A DNA stretch of 37,361 bases, taken from Candidatus Aenigmatarchaeota archaeon. GTDB lineage: Archaea > Aenigmatarchaeota > Aenigmatarchaeia > QMZS01. The translations under genes were made by a program, and so were the position numbers. Under the pieces are notes generated by a model. The model was not told the DNA's origin. It did not search any database and worked only from the letters and a program-made list of their open reading frames with translations. How positions within the stretch are numbered: the first letter of the stretch is position 1; the number at the start of each line of letters is the position of its first letter. Below, one piece after another: positions 36,427 to 36,702 of this stretch. The DNA is taken from contig QMZS01000002.1 of NCBI GenBank assembly GCA_003663295.1, forward strand, positions 1 to 37,361, read 5' to 3'.

Positions 36427-36524
36427 AGTGAATTTCTGGTGTTTTGTTTATCAGTTAGGGGGGAGGCTTTGCACGTTTAAAATCATCACCTATTCACTAA
36501 TATTTTAATTTTAATAAATTATGG
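36427..36524 (+). repeat. Right copy of the ~96-nt direct repeat (pseudo SRP RNA 3' end plus tRNA-Pro promoter)
   Basis: See the left copy. Here GGAGGCTTTGCACG replaces GGTGCTCTGCACG, and the repeat abuts tRNA-Pro position 1. Confidence 0.8.
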
Positions 36525-36702
36525 GTTTGTGGTGTAGTTAAGCCTTTCTTTCAGAACACTAAAAAGAAAGAAGCTCTATAATGGTAGCATTGGGGCTTTG
36601 GGTGTTAACCTTGCCCAACGGGCAGGGAAGTCAAAAACAGCCTCCGACTCGAGTTCAAAGCAGCGCCTTAAATTAAAGGCGGTGAAAATCTCGGCAAACC
36701 CA
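36523..36702 (+). tRNA. tRNA-Pro(UGG) with three introns (D-loop, 37/38, T-loop)
   Basis: Acceptor GGGTTTG (36523-29) pairs with CAAACCC (36695-701); discriminator A. D-stem GTGT/GCAT is split by ~40 nt containing hairpin CTTTCTTT/AAAGAAAG. Anticodon stem GGGGC (36592-96) pairs with GCCTC (36640-44); loop TTTGGG + A with anticodon TGG (36599-601) and a 36-nt intron at 36603-36638. T-stem TCGAG (36649-53) pairs with CTCGG (36690-94); loop TTCAAA..T is interrupted by a 29-nt intron at 36660-36688. Mature length ~75 nt. Confidence 0.75.

Follow-up and report, generated by a model that had tools for sequence, protein, structure and literature searches.

Split and permuted tRNA genes occur in archaea such as Nanoarchaeum equitans, Caldivirga maquilingensis and Thermofilum. 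Non-canonical tRNA introns, at position 59/60 and elsewhere, and tRNAs with up to three introns have been described mainly in the Thermoproteales (PMC4033280, PMC4090602). In the account of Sugahara et al. (2007) that PMC4090602 gives, tRNA-Pro(UGG) of Pyrobaculum islandicum carries introns at 25/26, 37/38 and 56/57. Disrupted tRNA genes of DPANN archaea (ARMAN-2/Micrarchaeum, Pacearchaeota, Woesearchaeota, Nanoarchaeum) have been tied to EndA splicing endonuclease variants with extra loops, and incomplete tRNA sets in DPANN genomes point to disrupted genes that go undetected (PMC5829648). The pre-tRNA-Glu(UUC) of Methanopyrus kandleri combines a canonical intron with a D-loop intron of the HBh' type, and its cleavage has been shown in vitro (PMC5829648). 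The original prediction for the locus described here held that multi-intron tRNAs are best documented in Thermoproteales and a few other lineages; this fits the literature (PMC4033280, PMC5829648), in which DPANN archaea are represented too.

In this study, we show the exon/intron anatomy, the splice motifs and the selective exon conservation of a disrupted tRNA gene in a 37,361-nt stretch of archaeal DNA, hereafter the window. Positions 36523-36702 of its plus strand are very probably a working tRNA-Pro(UGG) gene with three short introns. We estimate at about 88% the probability that they form a functional gene of the Aenigmatarchaeota (DPANN) whose three introns are spliced by proteins.

The host is a tiny uncultured marine-sediment archaeon of the Aenigmatarchaeota (DPANN). 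Its archaeal nature is evident from an Archaea_SRP RNA in the window (123.8 bits), from encoded topoisomerase VI, SecY and archaeal-type ProRS, and from orthologues of its tRNA-Pro gene in Aenigmatarchaeota MAGs (see below); its DNA is A+T-rich (32% G+C). The window also holds an ORF of > 775 aa that runs off its start (1 to about 2330, minus strand), the N-terminus of which is signal-peptide-like and followed by repetitive N/S/I-rich sequence. At 3228-4322 (plus strand) a 364-aa protein of the class-V aminotransferase fold is encoded, with SepSecS as its best Pfam match (E = 2.7e-35); possibly, this is a tRNA-dependent Sep-converting enzyme or related to one. Finally, 23-nt inverted repeats (96% complementary) at 6661-7525 surround 819 nt without an ORF >= 90 aa, and this may be a decayed insertion element.

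Anatomy of the tRNA-Pro(UGG) locus

The gene (36523..36702, plus strand, like all its parts below) spans 180 nt with four exons and three introns. It starts with GGGTTTG, ends with CAAACCCA and does not encode the CCA end; its acceptor stem is GGGTTTG/CAAACCC, followed by discriminator A. In its unspliced form it escaped detection. When run on the 37-kb window, ARAGORN made no call at the locus in default or intron mode, and in default mode it reported no tRNA anywhere. No Rfam tRNA or intron model matched the locus at gathering threshold or at E <= 10, and within 36400-36800 there was no tRNA-model match even at the latter setting. The sole Rfam match in the window at gathering threshold was the archaeal SRP RNA at 32558-32827. 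Once the three inserts are removed, the remaining 73 nt are recognised by ARAGORN as tRNA-Pro(tgg), with a normal cloverleaf. The results before and after removal bear out the original prediction that a cloverleaf requires the excision of three segments, and neither the ARAGORN intron search, which had been proposed as a check, nor the Rfam models offered a better tRNA solution at the locus. The gene length of 180 nt was as predicted, with a mature tRNA of 73 nt for the expected ~75 nt. Elsewhere in the window, ARAGORN intron mode reported a tRNA-Ile(gat) with a 336-nt intron (11505-11934), which is almost certainly a false positive since it lies inside a 634-aa ORF (10170-12074).

The spliced tRNA has a 7-bp acceptor stem (G1-C72, G2-C71, G3-C70) with discriminator A73, a 4-bp D-stem with two G.U pairs, a 9-nt D-loop (AGUUUGGUA), a 5-bp anticodon stem with the 7-nt loop UUUGGGA, a variable loop of 4 nt, and a T-stem UCGAG/CUCGG closing the 7-nt T-loop UUCAAAU. 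The conserved tRNA bases are in place, namely U8, A14, G18 G19, U33, G37, G53 T54 T55 C56, C61 and A73.

Because ARAGORN alone accepts dozens of D-loop borders, we used the archaeal splice motif to set exon borders. In this motif two 3-nt bulges on opposite strands flank a 4-bp helix, and the cut follows the second base of each bulge (marked below by a slash within the bulge). All border pairs were scanned for such a bulge-helix-bulge; a loose scan returns many chance matches. Applied to the gene, the rule gives junctions 17/60 and 137/167 (gene coordinates), which lead to canonical loop sizes.

Exon 1 (36523..36539) comprises tRNA positions 1-17, that is the acceptor 5' strand, U8, the D-stem 5' strand and A14 G15 U16 U17. 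Intron 1 (36540..36581, 42 nt) lies in the D-loop between U17 and U17a. Its central helix pairs G12-G15 (GUAG, 36534-36537) with CTAT (36576-36579), between the bulges TT/A (36538-36540) and AA/T (36580-36582). The inner part consists of a 3-bp AGC/GCT helix, a 2-nt bulge and a perfect 8-bp hairpin CTTTCTTT/AAAGAAAG. In the motif scan this solution (p=17, q=60) has 4/4 central-helix pairs and 3 inner-helix pairs, and it leaves the D-loop AGTTTGGTA. Two sets of hand-drawn borders, one with a 40-nt intron and an 11-nt D-loop, the other with an AGTT/AGCT helix and a 15-nt D-loop, were dropped in favour of it. The original prediction placed an insert with a perfect hairpin in the D-loop, as is found; its size of ~40 nt does not hold, the bulge-helix-bulge rule giving 42 nt. 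The core is strict and the outer helix has just one G.U pair, which makes the motif HBh'-like. G12 and U13 of the central helix belong to the D-stem as well. Motif and D-stem are therefore alternative folds, and the D-stem can form only after removal of the intron.

Exon 2 (36582..36602) covers positions 17a-37, with G18 G19, the D-stem 3' strand, the anticodon-stem 5' strand, U33, the UGG anticodon and G37. Intron 2 (36603..36638, 36 nt) occupies the canonical 37/38 site and has a relaxed motif. U32-U34 and G35 pair with a CAAAAA run in the central helix, and the bulges are GG/T and AC/A. The run has five As, where four would make the motif strict; the extra A can be accommodated in three ways, by an A bulged from the helix, by loss of the G35 pair or by a 3' bulge of four bases. 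The 5-bp anticodon stem serves as outer helix, and a 3-bp inner helix leads to the 8-bp hairpin CCTTGCCC/GGGCAGGG with one G.U pair, so that the 36-nt insert and its hairpin were rightly foreseen. The junction geometry here matches the description of canonical introns in PMC4090602, according to which the 4-bp helix contains the pairs between the intron and the first two bases of the anticodon.

Exon 3 (36639..36659) holds positions 38-59, comprising the anticodon-stem 3' strand, the 4-nt variable loop, the T-stem 5' strand and T54 T55 C56 A57 A58 A59. Intron 3 (36660..36688, 29 nt) interrupts the T-loop at 59/60 with a strict hBHBh' motif. TTCA (T54-A57, 36654-36657) pairs with TGAA (36683-36686), the bulges are AA/G (36658-36660) and AA/T (36687-36689), the 5-bp T-stem abuts directly as outer helix, and one inner C-G pair is followed by the 6-bp hairpin CGCCTT/AAGGCG. 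Position, length and hairpin, which is perfect, are those of the original prediction. Intron 3 corresponds exactly to a canonical intron of the anticodon loop, with the T-stem in the role of the anticodon stem. Exon 4 (36689..36702) supplies positions 60-73, with U60, the T-stem 3' strand, the acceptor 3' strand and A73.

Inspection of the junctions, which had also been suggested as a check, finds a bulge-helix-bulge core at each of them, strict in the D-loop and the T-loop and relaxed at 37/38. The two non-canonical introns, 1 and 3, have the full strict core of a 4-bp helix and two 3-nt bulges. When the whole precursor is folded to minimum free energy, the three motifs do not appear (-62.9 vs about -43 kcal/mol for the motif model); the splice motifs of this gene rest on pattern, and energy lends them no support. 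Self-splicing group I or II introns have a ribozyme core of a few hundred nucleotides. They were rejected as an explanation, the inserts being just 29-42 nt long and the Rfam intron models having no match. The exons are collinear on one strand within 180 nt, and the gene is neither split nor permuted.

Concerning the flanks, a TATA-box-like element (TTTAAAATCAT, 36476..36486) lies 47 nt upstream of the mature 5' end, and a T-rich tract (TTTAATTTTA, 36703..36712) follows the gene directly. A similar element (TTAAAAATCAT) is found 41 nt upstream of a second, hidden tRNA gene for leucine. In both genes TTTAAAA(A)TCAT stands 41-47 nt upstream, and AATTAT immediately precedes the first base. By their sequence and position, the TATA-like element may act as promoter and the T-rich tract as transcription stop.

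Further upstream, a 66-nt direct repeat (32813-32878 and 36459-36524, 88% identical) covers the SRP RNA 3' end and the tRNA-Pro promoter region. Between its two copies lies a 3.6-kb segment (about 32879-36458) with a small ORF and genes for an Mrr-type restriction endonuclease and an AAA_14/DUF4143 ATPase. In the related contigs L006, L008 and L010 (see below) the SRP RNA gene lies directly upstream of tRNA-Pro, without this segment. The segment has the look of a defence-type island that inserted with duplication of its target; an integrase was not seen. The Mrr-type endonuclease has 401 aa in the window vs 925 aa for its homologue on contig L001, and the N-terminal part of its ORF contains a 198-nt tandem duplication (34192-34587, two copies, 90% identical). 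Between the start of the ATPase gene and tRNA-Pro lie a 21-nt palindromic site (ATTTGGTCTGTCAGACCAAAT, 36358-36378) and a second copy of it (36391-36411, 90% identical), which look like operators.

Related alleles and a second disrupted tRNA gene

Three routes led to related copies of the gene. A partial TrpRS encoded downstream (36750-37361) led by synteny to the JGI metagenome contig L001; the same approach had no success for L002, which is 58% identical. The last 19 nt of exon 2 (36584-36602) were used as a pattern against one genome per species and retrieved four contigs (L003/L006, L004, L008), which belong to three MAGs with the title Candidatus Aenigmatarchaeota archaeon (JAUWTN01, JAGLVB01, JAUVLW01). 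An exon-3 pattern added two metagenome contigs, L009 and L010, and these are only close alleles. Every tRNA-Pro copy found carries all three inserts in the same places.

The window, L001, L010, L004, L003 and L008 were aligned as six alleles; they come from independent assemblies of close relatives, and the comparison is therefore shallow. None of the 73 exon columns varies, as against 29 of 113 intron columns (Fisher p = 1.2e-7). The three-insert tRNA-Pro gene is thus more than chance, recurring in six independent assemblies with invariant exons. Likewise, in metagenome contigs from four further sequencing runs the variants fall only inside the inserts; the variant contigs originate from marine-sediment, hydrothermal-vent and cold-seep runs. 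Cloverleaf, junction motifs and exon conservation agree with the tRNA-Pro(UGG) with one canonical and two non-canonical introns that was originally proposed. Intron identity to the window is 78-93%, and the neighbouring trpS shows 87-97% nucleotide identity to it in L001, L004 and L009. Intron 1 ranges from 42 to 48 nt among the alleles, mainly by way of its hairpin loop.

Across the six alleles, just 4 variable positions touch the motif cores. Standard pairing is seen in 98.3% of pair cells vs 40-59% when the partners are slid. In the inner helix and hairpin of intron 2, six pairs changed on one side with pairing kept, and the loop-closing pair changed on both sides, C-G to U-A or the reverse. 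In the intron-3 hairpin one pair occurs as G-C, G.U and A-U in different alleles. The hairpins of introns 2 and 3 change via G.U intermediates, with two double changes in all. The central helices and bulges are invariant in the six alleles, which fits constraint and offers no covariation for the helices that define the cuts. The five-A run of intron 2 is fixed in 6/6 alleles. No tRNA-Pro copy without intron 1 occurred in the metagenome collection searched, no second tRNA-Pro(UGG) copy was found in the three MAGs with the exon-2 pattern, and the pattern searches returned no more distant relatives in which covariation of the cloverleaf or loss of introns might show.

Both strands of the window were also scanned strictly for a 7-bp acceptor stem, U8 and a T-arm with G53-C61 and TTC, a long T-loop being allowed. 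Seven matches were obtained, and only those at the tRNA-Pro locus and at a tRNA-Leu locus have G+C-rich stems. The other five have A+T-rich stems, and 4/5 fall within, or overlap with, long ORFs or the SRP RNA gene. The tRNA-Leu(UAG) gene (2515-2643, plus strand) carries a 45-nt insert at 59/60 (2585-2629) with a strict motif, in which the T-stem is followed by UUCG paired with CGAG and by the bulges AA/U and UA/U. ARAGORN and the Rfam tRNA model missed the gene, and the spliced 84-mer is called tRNA-Leu(tag) by ARAGORN.

Related contigs from four runs align to the tRNA-Leu exons and have a different insert, of 117 nt, exactly between 2584 and 2630. Since this is the predicted joint, the cut-site rule is independently confirmed. 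The same contigs contain an extra 52-nt insert in the tRNA-Leu D-loop, at 2534/2535. These sequences also show turnover of intron content in this group of organisms. The three introns of tRNA-Pro, compared among themselves and with the tRNA-Leu intron as a sign of transposition, show no similarity.

Proposed processing and alternative readings

From what is established about archaeal tRNA splicing we infer that tRNA-Pro is transcribed, cleaved by EndA at the sites given above and ligated. The precursor would measure about 180 nt plus leader and trailer, and each of its junctions can form a bulge-helix-bulge motif. A search for RNA runs covering the locus or a 10-kb stretch around it found none. 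In each 3-nt bulge EndA would cleave behind the second base, and the four exons would then be sealed into a 73-nt tRNA-Pro by a ligase of the RtcB type. No EndA or RtcB gene is present within the 37-kb window. A search with M. jannaschii EndA (checked against PDB 1A79) retrieved many EndAs of 165-210 aa, some of them labelled Nanoarchaeota or Woesearchaeota; none of these matches carried an Aenigmatarchaeota label. It is reasonable to expect a broad-specificity splicing endonuclease in the host, an expectation that fits the reported link of disrupted tRNAs to loop-bearing EndAs in DPANN (PMC5829648). Only two features call for relaxed recognition, the weakness of the outer helix in intron 1 and the additional A in intron 2.

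The main reading competes with others in which either the cuts or the gene itself would differ. It is unlikely that the gene has its three introns and is cut slightly off the motif-based sites, for example with intron 1 as 40 nt and an 11-nt D-loop AGTTAATGGTA, or with the 3' cut of intron 2 one base upstream. ARAGORN does accept many D-loop borders, the scan yields weaker alternatives such as p=18, q=59 with 3/4 central-helix pairs, and comparison does not fix the borders, since none of the alleles lacks an intron. However, p=17, q=60 alone unites a valid cloverleaf, 4/4 central-helix pairs and a 3-bp inner helix, and it also yields the most ordinary D-loop; moreover, the same rule predicted the tRNA-Leu joint that related contigs confirmed to the base. 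As to intron 2, four pairs run without interruption in one register only (p=80, q=116), and there the 3' cut moves by one base, a shift that would leave an anticodon loop of 8 nt. If EndA measured from this UUUG/CAAA helix, the 3' cut would fall upstream and the mature tRNA-Pro would have the 8-nt loop UUUGGGCA; we regard this as very improbable. If true, it would make a natural frameshift-suppressor-type tRNA, or a mixture of 7-nt and 8-nt loops.

A decayed, unused tRNA-Pro pseudogene with three insertions, its function taken over by another gene for tRNA-Pro(UGG), would agree with the silence of the standard gene finders. Such decay is very hard to reconcile with exons that are 100% identical in six alleles while inserts and flanks diverge, or with three inserts all of which sit in splice motifs that restore canonical loop lengths. 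Besides, the three MAGs yielded no further copy with the exon-2 pattern, the metagenome collection held no copy without intron 1, and a TATA-like element is common to tRNA-Pro and tRNA-Leu. It is hardly credible that an intergenic region with three unconnected hairpins yields the cloverleaf by chance. Three free deletions do give many degrees of freedom, and the loose motif scan is prone to chance matches; yet G+C-rich stems among the seven strict-scan matches are confined to this locus and tRNA-Leu, and conservation is specific to the exons (p = 1.2e-7). A functional three-intron tRNA-Pro(UGG) gene with the motif-based cut sites remains the preferred reading.

Comparison with known disrupted tRNAs

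The closest single known example is tRNA-Pro(UGG) of P. islandicum. As far as the account in PMC4090602 goes, the two genes share the isoacceptor, three introns (the reported maximum) and collinear exons, as well as the arrangement of one canonical and two non-canonical introns in the 5' half and the T-loop with BHB or relaxed motifs. They differ, by the same account, in the non-canonical positions, 17/17a and 59/60 here vs 25/26 and 56/57 in P. islandicum. The hosts differ as well, an A+T-rich DPANN archaeon here and a hyperthermophilic crenarchaeon in the case of Pyrobaculum and the Thermoproteales. Intron transposition has been reported in Thermoproteales, whereas the mutually dissimilar introns of this gene give no sign of it.

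With the disrupted tRNAs of DPANN archaea the locus shares the superphylum and non-canonical, multiple introns (PMC5829648). Aenigmatarchaeota are named there as a DPANN member only and are absent from the genomes analysed. The undetected genes that PMC5829648 postulates have a match here, where ARAGORN and the Rfam tRNA model missed both tRNAs of the window. The "missing" tRNAs of such genomes are therefore, at least in part, a detection problem, and undetected tRNAs affect completeness estimates as well as inferences on host dependence.

M. kandleri pre-tRNA-Glu resembles the locus in having introns in the D-loop and at 37/38, with a weak or missing outer helix in the D-loop (HBh' type). It has two introns vs three here, its cleavage is known from in vitro work and that of tRNA-Pro is predicted from sequence, and its D-loop site is apparently at about 20/21, as deduced from an A21-to-G37 fragment, vs 17/17a. 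Split and permuted tRNA genes share the BHB-based processing logic and differ from the present gene, the four exons of which stand in order on one strand within 180 nt.

A single substrate here offers three motif qualities: the motif at 59/60 is strict, that in the D-loop has a strict core and a weak outer helix, and that at 37/38 has one base too many. This makes the precursor a natural substrate on which to test how specific DPANN splicing endonucleases are. The tRNA-Pro locus belongs to a known archaeal class, in a new lineage and with a D-loop position not named in PMC4033280, PMC4090602 or PMC5829648. With it, tRNAs carrying three introns, the largest number reported and hitherto associated chiefly with Thermoproteales, are extended to the Aenigmatarchaeota, a DPANN lineage with very small genomes.
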